Below the pieces are notes generated by a model. It made no database searches and was not told the DNA's origin. It worked only from the letters and a program-made list of their open reading frames with translations. 64,000 bases of DNA from a virus. How positions within the stretch are numbered: the stretch's first letter is position 1; each line of letters begins with the position of its first letter. A program made the position numbers and the translations under genes. The stretch lies in IMG/VR virus record IMGVR_UViG_3300037423_001503; one strand, written 5' to 3'. Below, one piece after another: positions 585 to 62,863 of this stretch.

Positions 585-2547
585 GCTCTCGCACGGCGAG
601 GACCAACTAGAACTCTCCCTGACCGGCGCAGAGGATTTCCAGGCCGCGCTGGCCGCGGTCAAGGCCATCCCGGGCCGCCGCTTTGACGGCGACCGCAAGC
701 TGTGGTGCTTCCCTGAGGATCCGGCGATTGCTGAGCGCCTCATGGTGACGGTGAAGCCAGAGCTTTCGCCTGACCTCTTGGGCTGGATCAAGGCGTCCAA
801 GAAGAACAGCCAGAAGGAACTCGTCACCCCACTGCCCGACGATGCCGATCTCATCGTCCCCTGGGCGAAGCAGCGCGTGCACTGGCAGCCCGAGTTCGTC
901 GGCCCGAAGTCCGATCCTGTCGAGTTCAAGGGTCTCTACGCCTTCCAGCGCGCCTTCGCCGACTTCGCGGCCGGTAAGACCGGCAACGACGCCGCGCTCC
1001 TGTTGGCTGACGACATGGGGCTAGGCAAGTGCGGCCAGTCATCGTCGGCGATCGTCGAGTGGATGATGCGCAGCGCTGGACTCTACGACATGCTCGCCAA
1101 CAACCCCAACGGCGTTCCCGTCGAAGGCCTCTCATGCGCGGCGGATATGTTGAAGTGGGCCGCGGTCGAGGACGGACCGAAGCTCATCATCTCGCCGGCC
1201 TCGGTGAAGGGAACCTGGGGCCGCGAGCTTCGCATGTGGCTCGGTCAGGCTGAGCCCATTTTCGTCATCGACGGCGCGGCGACGCCAAAGCGCCGCAACG
1301 CGCAGCTTCTCGACGCCATCAACAACTCCGGTTGGGCGGTCATCAACTGGGAACAGCTTCGAGTCAAGCGTGAGATCCGTAAGGTCCGCACTCGCATGAT
1401 GCACGCCATCACGGGCGAGTTCTTGGGCTGGAAGGAAAAGGACAAGGAGGTCACGGTTCTCCGTGAGCCGCTGTTTGAGGAGACTCCTTGGGTAGCGGCC
1501 GTCGCCGACGAGGCGCACCGGGCGAAGAACCGTAAGGCGCTTACAACGCAGGGACTGTGGCGTGTCAGCGCTGGCTTCAAGATGGCCTTGACGGGAACTC
1601 CGCTGATGAATTCGCCGGACGAGTTGTGGTCGATCCTGCGCTGGCTGTATCCGGAGGAGTACACCTCGTACTGGCGATTCTTCGATCAGTACGTTGACTT
1701 CTACGAGGGCCAGTACGGGAAGATCATCACTGGCGTCAAGAACGCCGACGCGTTGCGGTTCGAGCTTTCGACTCGCTTGGTCCGCCGCACCAAGGATGAG
1801 GTGCTGGATCAGCTTCCCGAGAAGACGCGTGAGTTCGTTCCGATCACGCTCAATAAGAAGCAGCGCAAGCTCTACGACGAGGCCGAGAAGCAGCTTTGGT
1901 TTGAGGTCGAGCAGGCAATCAAGGACGGTGATCGATCTGCGCTGAAGTTCGCTAAGGAGGTCTCAGCGAACCCGGCCGCCGTCTATACGGTTCCGAATGG
2001 TGCGGCGCGTATCGTGCGGCTGCGCCAGATTGCTTCCACGCCGGCCCTGTTGGGCGGCGAGGATGACTCGGCCAAGCTCGACGCTGCTGTCGAGACCATC
2101 ACCGACAACATCGGCTCGCAGTTCGTGGTATTCTCAGAGTTCGTCGATACCTGCCACATCCTTGTCGAGCGTCTACGTCGGCTGGGTGTCTCAGCAGAGG
2201 CCTTTACTGGTCAGTCTGATTCCGAGGATCGAACTCGGATGGAGAACGACTTCCAGGCGGGCGAGATCGACGTCCTCGTCGGAACGATCGGCGCGATGAA
2301 GGAGGGCATTACCCTCACCGCGGCCAGCAACATGATCTTCCTTGAGCGTCATTGGACGCCGGCTGTGAACGAACAGTGCGAGGATCGTTGCCACCGTAAC
2401 GGCCAGAAGAATGCCGTGACGATCCTGATCTTCGAGGCCGAGGACACGGTCGATGCTCAGAAGATCTCACCAACAAACGCAATCAAGTCGCTCATCGTTT
2501 CCTCGGTCATCGCCAAGGACGACGTCGCAGAGCGGAGGAGGAAGTAA
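577..2547 (+). CDS. SNF2/SWI2-family DNA helicase with HARP-like N-terminus
   Basis: LADDMGLGK, VADEAHRAKN, ALTGTPLMN, EGITLTAAS, QCEDRCHRNGQ; ATG at 577 preceded by AGGA. Confidence 0.9.
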   Translation: MPKLSHGEDQLELSLTGAEDFQAALAAVKAIPGRRFDGDRKLWCFPEDPAIAERLMVTVKPELSPDLLGWIKASKKNSQKELVTPLPDDADLIVPWAKQRVHWQPEFVGPKSDPVEFKGLYAFQRAFADFAAGKTGNDAALLLADDMGLGKCGQSSSAIVEWMMRSAGLYDMLANNPNGVPVEGLSCAADMLKWAAVEDGPKLIISPASVKGTWGRELRMWLGQAEPIFVIDGAATPKRRNAQLLDAINNSGWAVINWEQLRVKREIRKVRTRMMHAITGEFLGWKEKDKEVTVLREPLFEETPWVAAVADEAHRAKNRKALTTQGLWRVSAGFKMALTGTPLMNSPDELWSILRWLYPEEYTSYWRFFDQYVDFYEGQYGKIITGVKNADALRFELSTRLVRRTKDEVLDQLPEKTREFVPITLNKKQRKLYDEAEKQLWFEVEQAIKDGDRSALKFAKEVSANPAAVYTVPNGAARIVRLRQIASTPALLGGEDDSAKLDAAVETITDNIGSQFVVFSEFVDTCHILVERLRRLGVSAEAFTGQSDSEDRTRMENDFQAGEIDVLVGTIGAMKEGITLTAASNMIFLERHWTPAVNEQCEDRCHRNGQKNAVTILIFEAEDTVDAQKISPTNAIKSLIVSSVIAKDDVAERRRK

Positions 2548-23757: not shown

Positions 23758-24540
23758 ATGGGTCGAGTTGAGCGCGACCGCCTTGGCGCGCGCATGAAGG
23801 AGTACGAGGCGCAGTGCAGGTTCGTGCTGCCACGCCGCACCTACACGATCCTGCGTCTCGACGGGCGCGCGTTCCACTCCTGGACCAAGGGTCTCAATCG
23901 TCCCTACGACGAAACCATGCTGACCGCGATGGCTGCGACGTCGAAGAAGCTTTGCTCGGAGATCTCGGGCGCTGTGTTCGCGTACACGCAGAGCGACGAG
24001 ATCAGCATCCTCGTTCAGGACTTCGCATCGCCGGATACGCAGCCCTGGTTTGGCGGCGTGGTGCAGAAGCTGGCTAGCGTCTCAGCGTCGGTCGCTACGG
24101 CCGAGTTCAACTCCTACTGGGAACGCCCGCCGGCCTATTTCGACGCGCGCTGCTTCACCATCGAACAGGCCGTTGAGGTTGCCAACTACTTCGTGTGGCG
24201 GCAGAAGGACGCGCGCCGCAACGCCATCAGCATGATCGCCGAGCAGCACTGGTCGGCGAACGAGCTTCACGGACGCCCAACTTCGGCGCGCCGCGAGATG
24301 CTCGAAGCTCAAGGCCTGGACCTTGATCGAGAGGACCAGCGCTTCATGATGGGCCAGGTCGTGTACCCGGTTACGGTTTTCGAGTCGGTCGTCTACACCG
24401 ACAAGCGCACCGGTGAGGAGTGCCGAACGCCTATGGTCGAACGACGCGTGCTCGATACGATCCCAGCGCCTGAGTTCCGCGCCGACCAGGGCTGGCTTGT
24501 CGAGCAGATCCACAACATTCCCGACGCTGTGGCTGCGTAA
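23758..24540 (+). CDS. Thg1-like tRNA(His) guanylyltransferase / 3'-5' polymerase
   Basis: RMKEYE, LRLDGRAFH, AYTQSDEISI, FDAR, YFVWRQKDARRNAI. Confidence 0.93.
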   Translation: MGRVERDRLGARMKEYEAQCRFVLPRRTYTILRLDGRAFHSWTKGLNRPYDETMLTAMAATSKKLCSEISGAVFAYTQSDEISILVQDFASPDTQPWFGGVVQKLASVSASVATAEFNSYWERPPAYFDARCFTIEQAVEVANYFVWRQKDARRNAISMIAEQHWSANELHGRPTSARREMLEAQGLDLDREDQRFMMGQVVYPVTVFESVVYTDKRTGEECRTPMVERRVLDTIPAPEFRADQGWLVEQIHNIPDAVAA

Positions 24541-27213
24541 TGGAAATCCAGGCGCTACTAACGATCGTACTTATTGTGCTTGCCTACCGAGCCGGACGAC
24601 GCGACGAACGAGAGGGACGATGAGGTACCCGATCAAGCTCAACGACGGCTACACCTGCCAGGGCTACGACGCCGACGGACGATACATCGTGTTCGACGAC
24701 TTGCTCGGCGAGGGCGAACGTGTAGGACCGTCTGACGGCGAAGGCAACGTACACGTGAATGCATACGTCGTGCGACGCGAGGACGGCCTGTGGGTGGAGG
24801 CGCTGTGAGCTTCACGGTGATGATCGCAGTGCATCGCGACGTACTGCCGCCCGTTCTGGGTATGCGTCACCTAGTTGGTATCAACCTGCGCGGCGGTTAC
24901 GACGCCGTTCTGGAGTTCGACAATCCGGTCTCCTTCGAGGGCACGGTCGATGAGGTTCGCCAAAGGACACGTAGTCACGTGTTTAGCGCGGCGCACTCGC
25001 ACAACGGGTTCCGTGACGCCGCCATGCTGCGGTACACACCGTTCAAGACCGGCACCGAGTGGGGACAAGCTCGCGTCGCAGCGATACCAGAGGACCGACG
25101 CTGCGAGAAGTGCGCCGGTACAGGCAATGATGTCATTCTGGCCTCCAACGGTGGCGTCGGTGAAGTCGTAATCTGTTGGCCATGTGAAGGCACTGGAAGG
25201 AAGAAGGCATGACTCTCTACGAGGCGATGCAGGTGTTGGTGCGATTCCATTCTTGGGATTTCGGTGACCGCGGACACGGCTTGTGCGATCAGACGTTGCG
25301 CGCCGAGCTTGCTCAACTAATCGACGCGGCAGACCTCGCCGACGTGCGCGTGACGCTCGGACGGTTCGTTCGCGAAGAGTTCCTGAGCGAAGATGCTCTC
25401 GACGCAGGCTACGGGCCTGAGGACGCGCTGGATTTCCTGAATTGGTTCTGCGCAGGAGATTTCCGACCGTGAGCATTTCTCATCAGGAGACACTCGACGA
25501 GATCAAGTACAACGACCCCCTGATCGAGATCAACCAGAGGTGGTCTATCTGCGACGACGCCGGCTTACCCTACAGGGTCATCAGGGTGCTATGTCGACAC
25601 CCAGATGATGGTAATGACGGACAGCGTCGTTGGGTTTGCGAAGAGCAGCCTGCACACTTGGGGTTCAAGGGAATCGGCGTCTGGGACGAGTACCAGATCA
25701 GAAGGGTGTTCAGGCCGCATGGTTAGCAGGGCTCTGGTGGTGTTGCTTTTTCTGTTTGAGGCCATTGTGCTGGTCGCGACGGGCTACGTTGCGTTCAATG
25801 CTTGGGTCTTCGGAGGCGTCGGGCCTGGTATAGCCGCCACGAGCATCGTCGTTGTCGTGGCTGTTGTGCTCGGCTGGGGGCTGTGGGAGATTTGGACGAG
25901 CTAGGCTCCTGGTACCCAGGGAAGCGTTGCCCGCGCGAGGCCGAGCTTCCCTTGGATCTCATGGTGAGAATGTTGATGGACGACCGGCGCATCGTTGCCG
26001 GTCGTGTCATGTACACGCCGCTTCAGGTCGCAGCGATCTATGCGAACTACAACCACAAGTACGTCAAGGATGAGGACACGAGAGACTTGATCCGTCGCCT
26101 ACTTCAGATCCACGGCCGAGCCGTCGACCGAAACGAACCACTACCAGAGGAGATGGAGCTTTGAAGCTCTTCATCGCTAGAACCGTCGTGTATGCGTTCT
26201 TCGTCTCAACAGTACTATTCCTGGTCATCGCCCCGATCATCAACCCGCAGGTCCTGATCTGCTACGGGATTGTCGCCTTGCTGGCCCTGGTTATTTGGGC
26301 GCTCGTTACAGTCGAGGACAACGACCGATGAACATCAACGATTGGATCGGACACATCGACGGCCTGCGACGCGAGGACGAACTTCTAGCTGTCGGCGAAT
26401 GGCACGGCTACCTAAGGGAGTTCGGTAGCGGTGGGCCGCTGCGCGGCAACTACGTGCTCGTTCGGTGGCGCACTCCTACCGTGTTGGTCTCGCACGACGA
26501 CCCCGACGAGTGCGTCAAGCTGGCGCGGCGCATCGAGCGCGCAGCGATGTGGAAGTACATCGACAACGAGGAGCGCCCCGCGGTGTGGGCGCAGGAGGCC
26601 GAGGATCAGTCGTGACCGACTACAGCGACGCCCTCGCGGTTGTCGATGATCTGATCGCGGAGGAGGCCGCGCTGGCCAACAAGATTTGTGCCGCCGATCC
26701 CATAGGCTGGACGCGCCTCGGACTGGGTACGTCGTCTGGGGCTCGACTCCATGCATTTCAGGAGGTCAAGCGGCGGCTCATCAGTCACGGCGTCCGCGAC
26801 CGTGAAGAGGCCTGCATCATCGTCCAGTGGGACGAGGGCTACGGCGAGTGGTTCGCCTATTGCCGCAAGTGCGGCAAGCGAGTCAGCAACGCCTACGCGC
26901 TGCGACACGAAGTCGACGACATGGGTCGCGTCGTCGATTGTGGCGTTGAGTTCAAGCACGTAACCACGCCCTACATTGGCGCGCTCCGCGAGGAGGTCAA
27001 GTCGCTACGCGACGACCTTACCTTCATTGATGTAGACTTTGCATCATGAGCCTCAATCAGCCGCAAGACGACCAGAAGGTGTGCCCGACCTGTAACGGCA
27101 CAGGCATGGCGTCGAAGTACGACATGGGTTGGCGCACGCTCATGCACAGCGACGAGTTCGCGCGCAAGGTCACCTGCGTGCCCTGCGCCGGCACGGGCGT
27201 CGTCTATGCGTGA
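24540..27213 (+). other. run of small hypothetical ORFs including TM peptides (24540-24623, ~25719-25904, 26161-26331) and DnaJ-type Zn fingers (24805-25212, 27046-27213)
   Basis: Coupled starts and stops; CxxCxGxG pairs; hydrophobic segments. Confidence 0.5.
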
Positions 27214-27532
27214 ACGAGTCCTCCATCTGACGCGCGATGACTTCAAGTGGGACTATTACCGCGCTAGCGGTAATGGCGGCCAGAACCGCAACAAGCGCGA
27301 CACCGCCGTACGGTGCACACATGCGCCCTCTGGTGCGGTCGGCAACGCAGCCGACGAGCGCACACAGGGCAAGAACCGTAAGCTCGCCTTCAAGCGCTGC
27401 ACCGACGACCCGAAGTTCCGTCGTTGGCTGGCCATCGAGCACGCCAGAACCCTAGTTGGCCGCGATCGATGGGTCGACCAGCAGATGCGGCCCGAGAATC
27501 TCTTGATCGAGTACGGCCCATTCGATCGTTAG
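27206..27532 (+). CDS. stand-alone RF-1 domain (GGQ) peptidyl-tRNA hydrolase / release-factor-like protein
   Basis: RASGNGGQNRNKRDTAVRCTHAPSG...ERTQGKNRKLA. Confidence 0.88.
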   Translation: MRERVLHLTRDDFKWDYYRASGNGGQNRNKRDTAVRCTHAPSGAVGNAADERTQGKNRKLAFKRCTDDPKFRRWLAIEHARTLVGRDRWVDQQMRPENLLIEYGPFDR

Positions 27533-27623: not shown

Positions 27624-28788
27624 TTAGCCCACGATGAGCTTGCCGATCTGTTCGAGGCTCGTGACCTGCGTGTAGTTCATCAGCCCCGGCGTGCGCGACG
27701 CCTCCATCACGATGTCCTCCGAGTTGCCGTAGGCGTAGCGTACGCGAAACTCGATACCGTCGATGACGAACACGGCCTGGCGCTTGAGCTTGTTGCCGCC
27801 CATGGGCTCATGCCGAAACTTGATGTCGTTGACCTCCGCCGCCGACATGCCTAGCTGCGACTGGAGAAACGTCAGTGCGAAGTCAACGAGTTCTACGTCC
27901 TGACGCTCAAGCTCGCTCTGCTGCAACGTGACCTGTTCCTCGCGCGCGGCGATTGCTCGATCTCGAAGCGAGCGCTTCGCTCCAATGATCTGGTCGGGCG
28001 TGATGTTGGAGAAGTCGAATTCGTCAACGCTCACGATGAAGTCCTCGTAGGTCGAAGATCGCAGATTGTGCGATCGTCTGCTCAGAAAGTCCGATATGCG
28101 CGTACTCGCGGTACCCAGCGTCAGCGCAGTTCCAGCAGCGAGGCCCCAACAGAGTCTTCGGGTAGAGCTTACCCCAGAAGATGAAATCTGCCGGCGCTGA
28201 ACAGAAGCGCTTGTTGTATTCAAAGGTTGTCTCCTTTTCGGCGCGACATGTCTCACGCAATGGGACGTACACGACAGCCTTGGCCGTCACCGCATCGGGA
28301 GCAAAACTAGCCAAGTCGAACCCTCTCCTTCCGGCGCCCACACGAACACTTACCAGGGCTTTCCGTGAGCGAGCCCCAACAATCCTCGCCTGCTTCGTCG
28401 CTGTCCCAGTCAGGGCAGCGAAAGCCATCAACGGGAACCCAGTGCTGGTTCAGGATGTCGAGCATGCGCTTATAGAGGATCTCCACGACGTTGTGGTCGA
28501 CGTCATCGTAGTCGATGTCAAGATGTAGATCGCCAGGTCCAGAGATCGCGAAGCTCTTACCGAAATAGCCGCGTCCCGGCACATCGAGCAGCTTGAACGC
28601 CGCCATCAGTTGTCCTGTGAGCGTTCGGTCGGGTAGGCGCGCTCGATGATCTCGTGAATCGTGTGGTCGACCTTCGTGTCGTAGTTGTCGAACAGCCGCT
28701 TCGACCGAGGCACCGTATCGTTCTGGTGCTTGATCTCAGCGACCGCCTTACGCACTGTGTCTCCGTCTGGCGTGAAGTTGATCTTCAT
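27624..28788 (-). other. four small hypothetical ORFs (27624-28034, 28024-28314, 28307-28606, 28606-28788)
   Basis: Coupled - strand ORFs with SD sites. Confidence 0.5.
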
Positions 28789-29516
28789 CAGAATCCCATC
28801 CTGATTCGATAGACAAGGTGGTTGATTTTACCCATGTCGGGTTCATCGGGAAGCTTGGAGTAGGCGGCTGCGTTGTCGAGAGTGATCAACATGGCCTCGG
28901 CGATGGACTCGACCTTATCGAGATCCTTCTCGGCAACGCCCTTGAGCCACTCAACCTGAAGCGGCTGTAGACGCACCAAGACCTCGCCGTGCTTGAGGGC
29001 GTGGACGCCGGCCATGAGCAGTCGTAGCGTGTGAAGCTTGAACTTGGTGCGCTTGTGGTGACTCGCGCCGCGAGAACCACCAGTTCCCTCACGCGCCTTA
29101 CGAAGCTGCGAAACCGCGTAGCCGCCGTAGGTGTGAACGATGCGCTTCGAGAGGAAGAGCCCGCGGCTATTGATGAGTTGGCCGCCGGCCGAGTAGGCGT
29201 CAATCATCTGGTCATCGGACCACAGCATCTCTAGCGCTGTTGGGTTCGCCTTAGCGGCAAGGCGAGCGAAGTGCGCTAGCTCGTAGACGACGACGTCTGC
29301 GTCTTCGGCGATCGAGTTGAGTTCGAGCGCGTCCTTAGCGCCGCCCAGGGAGAGAACCCTGCGAAGCCCAGCCACGTAGACGCCTCGAAAATCGTGATCC
29401 GAGTCAGGGTTGTCGGTGCCGTAGGCACGGCTGCCGGTGCGCGAGACGAGCACGAGTTCGCCGTCTGCGGCCTCTGCGTGCGGCTCGATGAGATCAAAGA
29501 AGTCCTCAGTGGTCAT
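28788..29516 (-). CDS. DNA pol-beta-like nucleotidyltransferase (RlaP/PF10127 type)
   Basis: GSRAYGTDNPDSDHDFRGVY, ANPTALEMLW, YGGYAVSQ, HTLRLL. Confidence 0.85.
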   Translation of the reverse strand: MTTEDFFDLIEPHAEAADGELVLVSRTGSRAYGTDNPDSDHDFRGVYVAGLRRVLSLGGAKDALELNSIAEDADVVVYELAHFARLAAKANPTALEMLWSDDQMIDAYSAGGQLINSRGLFLSKRIVHTYGGYAVSQLRKAREGTGGSRGASHHKRTKFKLHTLRLLMAGVHALKHGEVLVRLQPLQVEWLKGVAEKDLDKVESIAEAMLITLDNAAAYSKLPDEPDMGKINHLVYRIRMGF

Positions 29517-30454: not shown

Positions 30455-31804
30455 TCAGTCCTTGTACTTGTCGACAACGCCGCTACCGGCCATGGCGACG
30501 CCAATCGGGCGGAGCGAGTGCTTGACTTCGACGTAGTCGGCGTGGGCGGCCAGCACTTCAGGCAATCGCTTGTAGGCCTCGGGAGCCTCGTCAGCGTCGC
30601 CGCCGCGAAGTTCGATGCCCTGTCGGCGCAGGCGCTTCTGGACAGCCTTCCAGTCGACTCGGCCCTCGCGCTCCTGAACCCACGTCTTGGACACGTCACC
30701 ATGCATACACTCGGGGCAGATCGTGAACGACGGCTCGCCGCGTCCCTGTGTGTGCCCGCAGTTGTTACACGTGACGCGCTTGCGCTGTCGACCCTTGGCC
30801 TCTGTGCGCGACATCACACGTCCCGCGCCATGCGGGGCCGACCAGATGGCCTCCTGGCCGGCGGCCCAAGCGAGCAGCCTCTTACCGGTCGTTACGAGTC
30901 CACCATCGCCGAAGCCCTCGATGATGACCGCATTCTCGCCCATCGAGCCGCCAACGAAGCCCTGCTGTCCCGGGTAGAGTGGCGTCGAGCCCTTGCGGAC
31001 CACCCAACAATCCACACCATTCACGTTTTCCAACCACGAGAAGTTGTGGTGGTTGTGAACTTCGTGCACAACGGCCGGCGATCCCAGGATCTCCAGGACC
31101 TTGTCGACCACGACGTCGCGGCCCGCGTACGCGTAGTCGCCTGCGAGGTTCATGGCCTCGATGTAGGTGTAGCCGAGCGGAGAATCCTTGTGCAGCAGCA
31201 CGGGCGGCGAGTGCATCTCACCGCCGTCGGCGTGGTCGGCGAACTCCTTGCCTTGTGCGAGCGCGAGGAAGCCGGAAGCGATCTTGTGGCCGAAGCCACG
31301 CGAGCCGAAGTGGACGCCGATCCAGATGCGATCGGTGCCTTCTTCGGCGAAGAGATCGACGTAGTGGTTGCCGGAGCCGACGGTGCCTAGCTGAGCCCGA
31401 GCGGTGCCGATGAGATCTCGAACGCCACGCATCGGAGCTTCACGATTGATGCGATCGAAGATCTCGTGGTCGACGGGCTCGTTGTTCGGACGCCCCATGC
31501 CGAAGCTGATGCGGCGCGAGATCTCGTCCATGATCTTCGGTAGATCGGCGCGGATATCGCCGAGGAAGAGGTTTGTCGAGACGGCCTTGTTGCCGCAGCC
31601 AATGTCGTAGCCCACAGAGGACGGCGAGACGTAGTCCTCATAGGCGATGACACCTCCGATGGGAGCAGAGTAGCCGAGGTGGTGATCTGCGCAGAGAACG
31701 CCAGCGACGGCGTCACCCGCGACCATGCAGGTCTCCATCTGGCGAACCGCGCCCTCATCGGGAGACATCCCATCGGGCGTGAAGATGGTTAGATTGTCAG
31801 ACAT
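30455..31804 (-). CDS. rtcB: RtcB RNA 3'-phosphate/5'-OH ligase
   Basis: DHHLGYSAPIGG, VGYDIGCG, QLGTVGSGNHY, VHFGSRGFG, HHNF, VRKGST, HGAGRVMSR, DEAPEAYK. Confidence 0.95.
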   Translation of the reverse strand: MSDNLTIFTPDGMSPDEGAVRQMETCMVAGDAVAGVLCADHHLGYSAPIGGVIAYEDYVSPSSVGYDIGCGNKAVSTNLFLGDIRADLPKIMDEISRRISFGMGRPNNEPVDHEIFDRINREAPMRGVRDLIGTARAQLGTVGSGNHYVDLFAEEGTDRIWIGVHFGSRGFGHKIASGFLALAQGKEFADHADGGEMHSPPVLLHKDSPLGYTYIEAMNLAGDYAYAGRDVVVDKVLEILGSPAVVHEVHNHHNFSWLENVNGVDCWVVRKGSTPLYPGQQGFVGGSMGENAVIIEGFGDGGLVTTGKRLLAWAAGQEAIWSAPHGAGRVMSRTEAKGRQRKRVTCNNCGHTQGRGEPSFTICPECMHGDVSKTWVQEREGRVDWKAVQKRLRRQGIELRGGDADEAPEAYKRLPEVLAAHADYVEVKHSLRPIGVAMAGSGVVDKYKD

Positions 31805-31841
31805 CGTGGCCTCCGAGTTGCGTTTCGAGGTTGATGAAGCT

Positions 31842-32014
31842 GTGCCGGTTCAGGGAGAACTCGTTGTGCGCCCGTACGCTCTTCCCCGCATTACCGCGCC
31901 TACGACCAGCGTAACGATGCCTTGGCCAGGCAGGATGCGCGTTGTGGGAGTGGCTCGTGTCCCACGGCCTCCGCGGCGGCCATTGTGGGCTCGACGAGTT
32001 CTCTGCACCGCCAC
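31842..32014 (-). ncRNA. 173-nt end-paired structured RNA of unknown family upstream of rtcB
   Basis: 5' and 3' ends pair, including perfect 10-bp GAGAACTCGT/ACGAGTTCTC; several internal hairpins; no credible ORF. Confidence 0.55.
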
Positions 32015-32057
32015 TATCCGACTCGTGATCAGCGAGTCAGCCAAACTTTGAAGATTG

Positions 32058-32182
32058 TTCCGTCGGAGGGGATCGAACCCTCTACCCTAGCAGCCGCTAG
32101 CAGGCTGATCGTCGGGTTATCGGCCCACTACTCGACACCCGGGTTCGCGACCCGCAGACGCCTTTCGCTTCCGATCGACGGC
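32058..32182 (-). ncRNA. tRNA-like RNA (~125 nt) with oversized variable region
   Basis: Canonical T arm GAGGG-TTCGATC-CCCTC, acceptor CCGTCG/CGACGG, D-like arm, GCG-loop arm, two extra hairpins. Confidence 0.65.
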
Positions 32183-32198
32183 CTGAGAAGCTTAGCAG

Positions 32199-32573
32199 CT
32201 ACTCGTCGTCTTCGTCAACCGGAAGCGAGGCGATGCGCTCAACATAGCGTTCCTGCTCGGCGATGAGGCCGTCTCGGAACCCGACCAAGGCGTCGATCAT
32301 CGTGTTGACCTTGTAGAGGTCGTTGGCGCGTGCGTCAGCGTCGGCAATATCGAAGTCGAACGAGACGCTGCGCGTGCAGTCGGCGATCTGGAGCACCATG
32401 TGTGGTCGGGCGTTCCAGCGTTCGAGCTTCTCGTCCTCGGCGTTCTTGCCGGCCTTCCAGCGAGAGGTGTCTTCGATTTCGGCGACGATCGCGCCTGTCG
32501 AGTGGTGGCCGGGCAGGTTGAGCATTGCGCGCCCGCCGTGGTAGCGGCGGCGCTGTCGTGGGCGTCGAGCCAT
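32199..32573 (-). CDS. hypothetical protein (leaderless, Arg-rich N-terminus MARRPRQRRR)
   Basis: TACTCT-N6-ATG at 32573. Confidence 0.6.
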   Translation of the reverse strand: MARRPRQRRRYHGGRAMLNLPGHHSTGAIVAEIEDTSRWKAGKNAEDEKLERWNARPHMVLQIADCTRSVSFDFDIADADARANDLYKVNTMIDALVGFRDGLIAEQERYVERIASLPVDEDDE

Positions 32574-32591: not shown

Positions 32592-32617
32592 CGACAAAGG
32601 CCGCCTCGTGGGCGGCC
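32592..32617 (-). terminator. intrinsic terminator after lysis cassette
   Basis: GGCCGCC-CACGA-GGCGGCC followed by TTTGTCG. Confidence 0.65.
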
Positions 32618-62792: not shown

Positions 62793-62863
62793 CGGGGCAC
62801 CTGGGATTCGAACCCAGAAGGCGCGGTTTTGGAGACCGGCCGGCACAACCTACGCTGTACCCC
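62793..62863 (-). tRNA. tRNA-Trp(CCA), atypical D arm
   Basis: CGGT-CTCCAAA-ACCG; canonical T arm. Confidence 0.7.

Follow-up and report, generated by a model that had tools for sequence, protein, structure and literature searches.

The species 1 and species 2 RNAs of T4, which are oversized tRNA-like RNAs encoded by the phage, have to our knowledge been without a known function for fifty years; in particular, we know of no role for the species 1 RNA (rnaC). As refolded here, rnaC (139 nt; NC_000866, 70908-71046) places a canonical T arm beside an imperfect terminal acceptor-like helix and has long hairpins where the D and anticodon arms of a tRNA would be. The element described in this report is likewise phage-encoded, oversized and non-decoding, and it has a layout like that of rnaC, with a length in the 120-140 nt class, a canonical T arm next to a terminal helix and a body unlike that of tRNA. 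The two RNAs have no sequence similarity, and rnaC lies at the end of a tRNA cluster whereas the element precedes an RNA ligase gene. They also differ in stability relative to shuffled sequences (z = -4.6 for rnaC, +0.34 for the element), and rnaC is a demonstrated stable RNA according to its record annotation, whereas the element is known from sequence alone.

YrlA-type bacterial Y RNAs occur in operons such as rsr-yrlBA-rtcBA (Chen et al. 2014, PMC4201824), and the YrlA of M. smegmatis is cut by RNase P and receives an added CCA (PMC4201824). These RNAs resemble the element in being tRNA mimics with a T arm that are encoded beside RNA-repair genes including rtcB. However, in YrlA the acceptor-like stem lies within the molecule, as a hairpin flanked by the T and D arms, and the RNA ends form the Ro-binding helix, whereas the ends of the element form the acceptor. 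YrlA RNAs are further tied to Ro60/TROVE and to the Ro-binding motif GNCGAAN0-1G. The 99%-complete phage genome has no Ro60 gene (TROVE, PF05731) and the motif does not occur in the 394-nt spacer in which the element lies, and the element is therefore not a YrlA-type Y RNA.

The tRNA-like domain of tmRNA also combines an acceptor helix and a T arm with the lack of an anticodon arm. In the element, however, the pair at 3:70 is C:G, so that the tmRNA/alanine identity is absent, and there is neither a tag reading frame nor a tmRNA call from default ARAGORN or Rfam, in agreement with an earlier note on this DNA that had set tmRNA aside. A module in the related phage lineage L094, described below, does share G3:U70 and A73 with tmRNA. 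Finally, the canonical tRNA genes that flank rtcB in other phages share with the element their strand and their placement with respect to rtcB, but the element differs from them in its length of 125 nt, in A8, C33 and a 4-bp "anticodon" stem, and in being left unscored by tRNA models.

The RNA-repair locus and its tRNA-like element

The element was examined in a window of 64,000 nt, the whole stretch of DNA that was analysed, from an uncultured phage with a genome of 139.5 kb (99% complete) that was found in soil and rhizosphere metagenomes. The phage carries about 42 tRNA genes, 36 of them distinct, and no tmRNA gene. On the minus strand, between a 124-aa gene and rtcB, is a 394-nt ORF-free spacer containing the element. 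We consider this an RNA-repair neighbourhood because RlaP, encoded in the same locus, extends damaged RNA 3' ends by 1-2 nucleotides in preparation for ligation (PMC12776372). The features of the locus are as follows.

23758-24540, strand opposite to the element and about 7.5 kb away: Thg1-family gene
27206-27532: gene for a small RF-1-domain protein
28788-29516, minus strand: RlaP nucleotidyltransferase gene (Pfam PF10127, E = 1.1e-30)
30455-31804, minus strand: RtcB RNA ligase gene (Pfam PF01139, E = 1.3e-57)
31807-31847, minus strand: conserved rtcB leader with a GGAGG ribosome-binding site, 90% identical to that of a sister phage
31848-32152, minus strand: 305-nt non-coding segment, replaced by 2 nt in the sister contigs L002, L003, L013 and L014
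32018-32040, minus strand: 8-bp hairpin 3' of the element, without a U tail
32058-32182, minus strand: tRNA-like element of 125 nt, an acceptor-like helix and T arm around a 95-nt non-tRNA body
32058-32065, minus strand: 3' acceptor strand CGACGGA (32059-32065) with discriminator A32058
32066-32082, minus strand: canonical T arm GAGGG-TTCGATC-CCCTC
32176-32182, minus strand: 5' acceptor strand GCCGTCG, within the leader common to the sister phage
32153-32198, minus strand: 46-nt leader common to the sister, 86% identical over the aligned 48-49 nt
32189-32218, minus strand: promoter-like TTGACG-18 nt-TAAGCT, read by eye and conserved as TTGACG...TAGGCT in L002
32199-32573, minus strand: 124-aa gene with no assigned function, whose homologues abut rtcB in more distant phages

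The start of rtcB is 254 nt downstream of the element, and the genes for the Thg1-family and RF-1-domain proteins both lie within 8.5 kb of it; the earlier note had correctly pointed to the adjacent rtcB and to a Thg1-like enzyme in the region. The spacer has a GC3 of 0.59-0.66 compared with 0.71-0.82 in the neighbouring genes. A 64-aa ORF at 31850-32044 and both plus-strand ORFs of the spacer were rejected as coding candidates for their flat GC1-3 profiles. The nearest named cellular homologues of the RtcB protein, at about 58-61% identity, come from Solirubrobacterales, Conexibacter and Paraconexibacter, which may point to a Thermoleophilia-type actinobacterium as the host or as the source of the gene.

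All of the sequence segments quoted in the earlier note are present on the minus strand at 32058-32182. The 5' strand GCCGTCG lies approximately 100 nt upstream of its partner CGACGGA, and together they form an acceptor-like helix of six contiguous Watson-Crick pairs with a G1:A72 mismatch. As in tRNA, an arm with a consensus T loop is followed directly by the seven-position acceptor stem, and a 22-nt stretch covering the variable loop and T arm exactly matches tRNA-Asp of Streptomyces phages. The discriminator is followed by CAA, so that CCA is not encoded; an encoded CCA is also absent from most tRNAs of the array at 62.3-64 kb. In other respects the element departs from tRNA. It has A8 in place of U8, C33 in place of U33 and an anticodon stem of 4 bp, and its body is some 50 nt longer than that of a tRNA, giving 125 nt in total compared with the usual 70-95 nt and, as had been noted before, with at most 86 nt for any tRNA in the array.

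Upstream, the 124-aa gene is probably leaderless, with TACTCT-N6-ATG following a terminator at 32599-32617. The promoter-like site at the end of this gene would set a transcription start about 7 nt downstream, at G32182, which is base 1 of the element; as the site fell below the threshold of the promoter scan and was left uncalled, we only infer this start. The sequence TAGCTGCTA(A/G)(A/G)CTTCT occurs at 32186-32201 (minus strand), at about 2905-2925 in L002 and at about 2118-2150 in L094. It is rich in TAG and TAA in several frames, lies directly 3' of the stop codon of the gene preceding the rtcB unit, and is found in these three lineages despite a different upstream gene (collagen-like in L094); it may be a module boundary or part of a promoter. 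The motif TAGCTGCTARRCTTCT had 59 matches in IMG/VR, about the number expected by chance, and among these rtcB was present only on the two known sister contigs. In metatranscriptome run X12, with 4% of the sampled words in common, contigs covered only 31580-31737 and a 36-nt piece at 32245-32280, with none reaching the element; the pieces at 31580-31737 represent conserved rtcB, mostly of other organisms.

Folding, chance expectation and searches for known RNA classes

The earlier note had read the element as a supersized tRNA with a two-hairpin variable region. Its T arm and acceptor are upheld, whereas the proposed D arm, anticodon arm and two variable hairpins, all of them stems of 4-5 bp, have no statistical support. 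The cloverleaf drawn in that note has a free energy of -33.4 kcal/mol and is 18 kcal/mol worse than the minimum free energy (MFE) structure (-51.2), in which the acceptor and T arm alone survive and the middle is drawn together in a single long, irregular hairpin. A possible GCG (Arg) anticodon loop with C33 had also been proposed; the letters are there, but the stem is of 4 bp and is absent from the MFE structure. The motif is real, and its reading as a supersized tRNA is overstated. When the element RNA is folded alone, the acceptor and T arm are predicted with probabilities of 0.7-1.0, but the acceptor helix depends on the length of the folded context: its probability is 0.8-1.0 with no more than 161 nt, and it is absent with 310 nt or more. 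Neither the whole element (z = +0.34 compared with dinucleotide shuffles) nor the 305-nt segment (z = -0.07) has extra stability. The second part of the segment (31840-32045, minus strand), with no counterpart in the sister, includes an end-paired stretch of about 170 nt with z = -1.8, in which some 12 bp of closing helix (GAGAACUCGU / ACGAGUUCUC) surround roughly 150 nt.

Chance expectations were obtained from null sequences generated with a second-order model of the window and refer to 62 kb with both strands counted. The expected number of all-Watson-Crick T arms that have a partner strand of at least 6 bp is 0.023. Allowing G-U pairs raises the expectation for a T arm with acceptor to 0.54, and 42% of random windows then hold a T arm with an acceptor of at least 6 bp. 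One all-Watson-Crick T-arm motif of chance origin, CCGAG-TTCGATC-CTCGG, occurs at 2222-2238 (minus strand), antisense within a 686-aa ORF. The combination in the element is modestly above chance. Given the low expectation for the all-Watson-Crick version, its position on the gene strand and its location in a gap without a coding signature, the top half (acceptor and T arm) is probably not a chance product.

ARAGORN and Rfam at gathering thresholds recovered 16 tRNAs in the array and none at the element, and a lenient Rfam search (E up to 10, on 801 nt and 161 nt) returned no tRNA, tmRNA or other relevant family there. As a control, the same lenient mode recovered the divergent tRNA-Trp of the window at 25.6 bits. 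This tRNA (anticodon CCA; 62793-62863, minus strand) is missed by ARAGORN, and its score lies below the Rfam gathering threshold of 29 bits. The intron mode of ARAGORN made no call at the element. Permissive modes gave only contradictory calls, at thresholds of 60-70%; the calls obtained at 60-80%, a permuted tmRNA and an intron-containing tRNA, are mutually exclusive and run into coding sequence, and were discarded as noise. We further deleted each possible internal segment of the element in turn (3,825 variants) and repeated the ARAGORN search. This yielded four equivalent mismatched calls, and 8 of 40 controls with a shuffled interior were also positive, whereas a real tRNA carrying a 52-nt insert gave 354-775 calls. 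As the deletion test remained at background level, the element does not contain a hidden intron-containing tRNA, and the suggestion in the earlier note of an intron-containing pre-tRNA sealed by RtcB is contradicted by this result and by the blank intron mode.

The sister phage and related lineages

The spacer is identical across all copies of this phage lineage. A sister lineage, represented among others by a complete genome of 139.9 kb and found in the same samples, encodes an RtcB with 85% identity and an upstream protein with 81% identity. The sister is otherwise collinear and, apart from the element, has retained the locus, including rtcB and RlaP. The difference lies in the 305-nt segment, which carries the body of the element, its T arm and 3' acceptor strand, the 8-bp hairpin and the end-paired stretch of about 170 nt. 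The sister retains the 5' acceptor strand, within the 46-nt leader that follows the stop codon of the upstream gene, and the last 41 nt before rtcB (90% identity). The earlier note had expected that, in a decayed tRNA or att remnant, homologues would conserve only the T arm; the nearest homologue does conserve only part of the element, but this part belongs to the 5' 46 nt and not to the T arm. Since a complete sister genome lacks the 305-nt segment, the element is dispensable.

The segment has no copy elsewhere in the complete sister genome and no homologue by blastn against 50,697 phage records. Three exact 22-23-mers from it had no match in IMG/VR outside its own lineage, blastn and nhmmer found none in a first set of other loci, and blastn found none in L094-L102.

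More distant relatives were reached through RtcB clusters. In L094 and L095 (RtcB 74% identical), the upstream gene is a different one, and the ORF-free rtcB leader after it, 378 nt long, contains a 62-nt acceptor/T-arm module (L094:2223-2284, plus strand; the same in L095). The T arm of this module is TCGGG-TTCAAGT-CCCGG and its acceptor, of 7 bp, is GGGGAGT/ACTCTCC; G3:U70 and A73 are both present, which is the alanine/tmRNA identity set without an mRNA-like domain. Rfam gives it only very weak matches, confined to the ends, to tmRNA (6.9 bits, E = 1.1) and to mascRNA (15.6 bits). Its chance expectation, as estimated from the window rates with G-U pairs allowed, is roughly 0.001 per such spacer. 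Alignment of the 394-nt spacer with the L094 spacer by MAFFT gave no meaningful result. In L102 (RtcB 72%) and L096 (70%), rtcB comes immediately after a homologue of the upstream gene, and the spacer is lacking altogether. In the RtcB tree, the two T-arm-bearing lineages belong to different clades, each beside relatives without an element. None of the upstream-gene homologues at 53% identity or less (P0003-P0020) lies next to rtcB. The nearest outgroup in the RtcB tree is made up of the RtcB clusters P0024, P0026 and P0027, and P0024 has no close relatives in IMG/VR.

The two acceptor strands thus lie on either side of a boundary between sequence shared with the sister and sequence unique to this lineage. 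A 46-nt leader would offer at least six Watson-Crick pairs to the 7 nt following the T arm by chance with a probability of 0.018, and for this reason the strands were most likely parts of one original unit from which the sister lost 305 nt. We favour this direction, in which the unit would have been truncated in the sister lineage; the spacer-less L096 and L102 fit both a gain of 394 nt followed by a loss of 305 nt and a gain of 91 nt followed by a gain of 305 nt.

Origin and possible role of the element

In 11 of 80 further IMG/VR phage loci, and in several metagenome loci, rtcB has an ordinary tRNA gene on its own strand at a distance of at most 1.2 kb. Because such genes often flank phage rtcB, the element probably descends from a tRNA gene. 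Among the 36 distinct tRNAs of the phage, its best match is the class II tRNA-Leu(tag), which agrees with the 5' strand at 5 of 7 positions and with the 3' 30 nt at 21 of 30, although the margin is small (26 compared with 24 matches). Taken together, the tRNA genes flanking rtcB and the matches to tRNA-Leu(tag) and tRNA-Asp make a tRNA ancestry plausible.

We consider the element to be probably a dispensable mimic or relic of a tRNA top half within an RNA-repair operon. Of these, we lean tentatively towards a dispensable, non-decoding mimic of the tRNA top half that is cut from the rtcB operon transcript by tRNA-processing enzymes. The element would be encoded in the intercistronic leader of an RNA-repair operon comprising the 124-aa gene, rtcB and RlaP, and the transcript would either start near G32182, at the promoter-like site, or read through from the upstream gene. 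The enzymes of host tRNA maturation would recognise the acceptor/T-arm minihelix, with RNase P acting at the 5' side and RNase Z or another nuclease after A32058, followed by the CCA-adding enzyme. The predicted products are a stable RNA of about 125 nt and a new 5' end for the rtcB mRNA. Decoding is precluded by A8, C33, the 4-bp "anticodon" stem and the lack of a match to any tRNA model, and the element is regarded as accessory because the otherwise collinear sister has deleted it or never had it.

As the chief alternative, the same observations may reflect a decaying tRNA-gene remnant (pseudo-tRNA) beside rtcB that has no present function and whose deletion was completed in the sister. This is possible, if rather unlikely. 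It would account for the common presence of tRNA genes beside phage rtcB, for the 5' strand and the 3' 30 nt both agreeing best with tRNA-Leu(tag), for a 5-bp hairpin exactly at the place of an anticodon arm followed by a 4-nt "variable loop" matching tRNA-Asp, and for the lack of excess stability and the sister genome without the element. Decay should, however, affect the T loop and the acceptor complementarity as it does the body, and both are perfect; to judge from the sequence, a perfect top half combined with a non-tRNA body that is 50 nt too long is unlike a pattern of uniform decay. The extra length would also call for insertions, the advantage of tRNA-Leu(tag) is slight, and a second lineage (L094/L095) retains a different intact top half at the same place. 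The perfect top half, the overlong body and the independent L094 module are our reasons for preferring a top-half mimic to uniform decay. A T-loop-like hairpin arising by chance within an ordinary long, GC-rich rtcB 5' leader is a distinctly improbable explanation. It is in keeping with the lack of a thermodynamic signal, with the 42% of random windows that hold such a combination once G-U pairs are allowed and with the accidental all-Watson-Crick T-arm motif at 2238, inside an ORF. Nevertheless, the all-Watson-Crick version is expected only 0.023 times per window, the element is on the sense strand of one of few long non-coding gaps, and the related L094 has another such module at the same position.

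Similarly doubtful, at about the level of a chance hairpin, is a role as decoy or substrate, as the earlier note had suggested; the RNA would then be a nuclease bait resealed by RtcB and RlaP, or its G1:A72 end would be corrected by the Thg1-like enzyme. Such a role gains from the co-location with RtcB and RlaP, from the Thg1-family and RF-1-domain genes nearby, from the ability of RlaP to extend damaged 3' ends ahead of ligation (PMC12776372) and from the drawn loop UCGCGAA, which is one base removed from UUGCGAA of the phage tRNA-Arg(gcg). It is weakened by the "anticodon arm", whose stem of 4 bp runs across the indel boundary and lies outside the MFE structure, and by the sister phage, which has the enzymes without the element; proximity is the sole link between enzymes and RNA, and the Thg1 gene is on the other strand. 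Integrases that target tRNA genes usually overlap them from the anticodon stem to the discriminator, and the 3' 43 nt of the element are tRNA-like over just this interval, as they would be in an attP-like fragment or integration scar derived from a host tRNA gene, of which it would be the 3' half. The 99%-complete genome, however, encodes neither a tyrosine nor a serine recombinase (PF00589, PF00239), and a search of 185,579 species genomes gave no exact match to the 22-mer that covers T arm and acceptor, so that such an origin is very unlikely. RtcB is the ligase of tRNA splicing in archaea and eukaryotes, which together with the permuted-tmRNA and intron-tRNA calls of ARAGORN at 60-70% might suggest a tRNA that is split or contains an intron, or else a tmRNA in two pieces, with the neighbouring ligase responsible for maturation. 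We regard this as largely refuted and hardly credible, as those calls exclude each other, enter coding sequence and appear at junk thresholds only, the exhaustive deletion test was at background, and there is neither a G3:U70 pair nor an Rfam tmRNA match at E up to 10 in a search that does detect the weak tRNA-Trp (25.6 bits).

At present this copy is an orphan and dispensable and adds one more data point on oversized tRNA-like RNAs, and the sister phages in the same soils form a natural presence/absence pair for comparison. A broader and unlikely proposition is that this group of soil phages has repeatedly placed top-half mimics before rtcB (125 nt here, 62 nt with G3:U70 in L094) as working parts of a repair module. 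Were it true, the mimics might act as bait or sensors for host tRNA-targeting nucleases or as guides feeding RtcB and RlaP, and they would represent an undescribed class of RtcB-associated tRNA-mimic RNAs independent of Ro60. A recurring link between top-half mimics and RtcB/RlaP would give the oversized phage tRNA-like RNAs a testable context in tRNA-damage defence and counter-defence.

Among approximately 140 distant phage rtcB loci, oversized T-arm/acceptor modules were not enriched, and crude counts were similar on both strands. In L148 (2400-2580, plus strand), four T-arm motifs occur within 170 nt immediately downstream of rtcB and ahead of a tRNA-Gln gene at 2603-2673, and ARAGORN calls none of the four as a tRNA. 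Several tRNA clusters linked to rtcB also include unusually long (92-94 nt) tRNAs called tRNA-Ile by ARAGORN, at the following positions.

L067:19-110, plus strand: long "tRNA-Ile"
L122:895-986: long "tRNA-Ile"
L164:2491-2583: long "tRNA-Ile"
L167:2672-2765: long "tRNA-Ile"

The copy in L067 has the anticodon UAU and a long variable arm.
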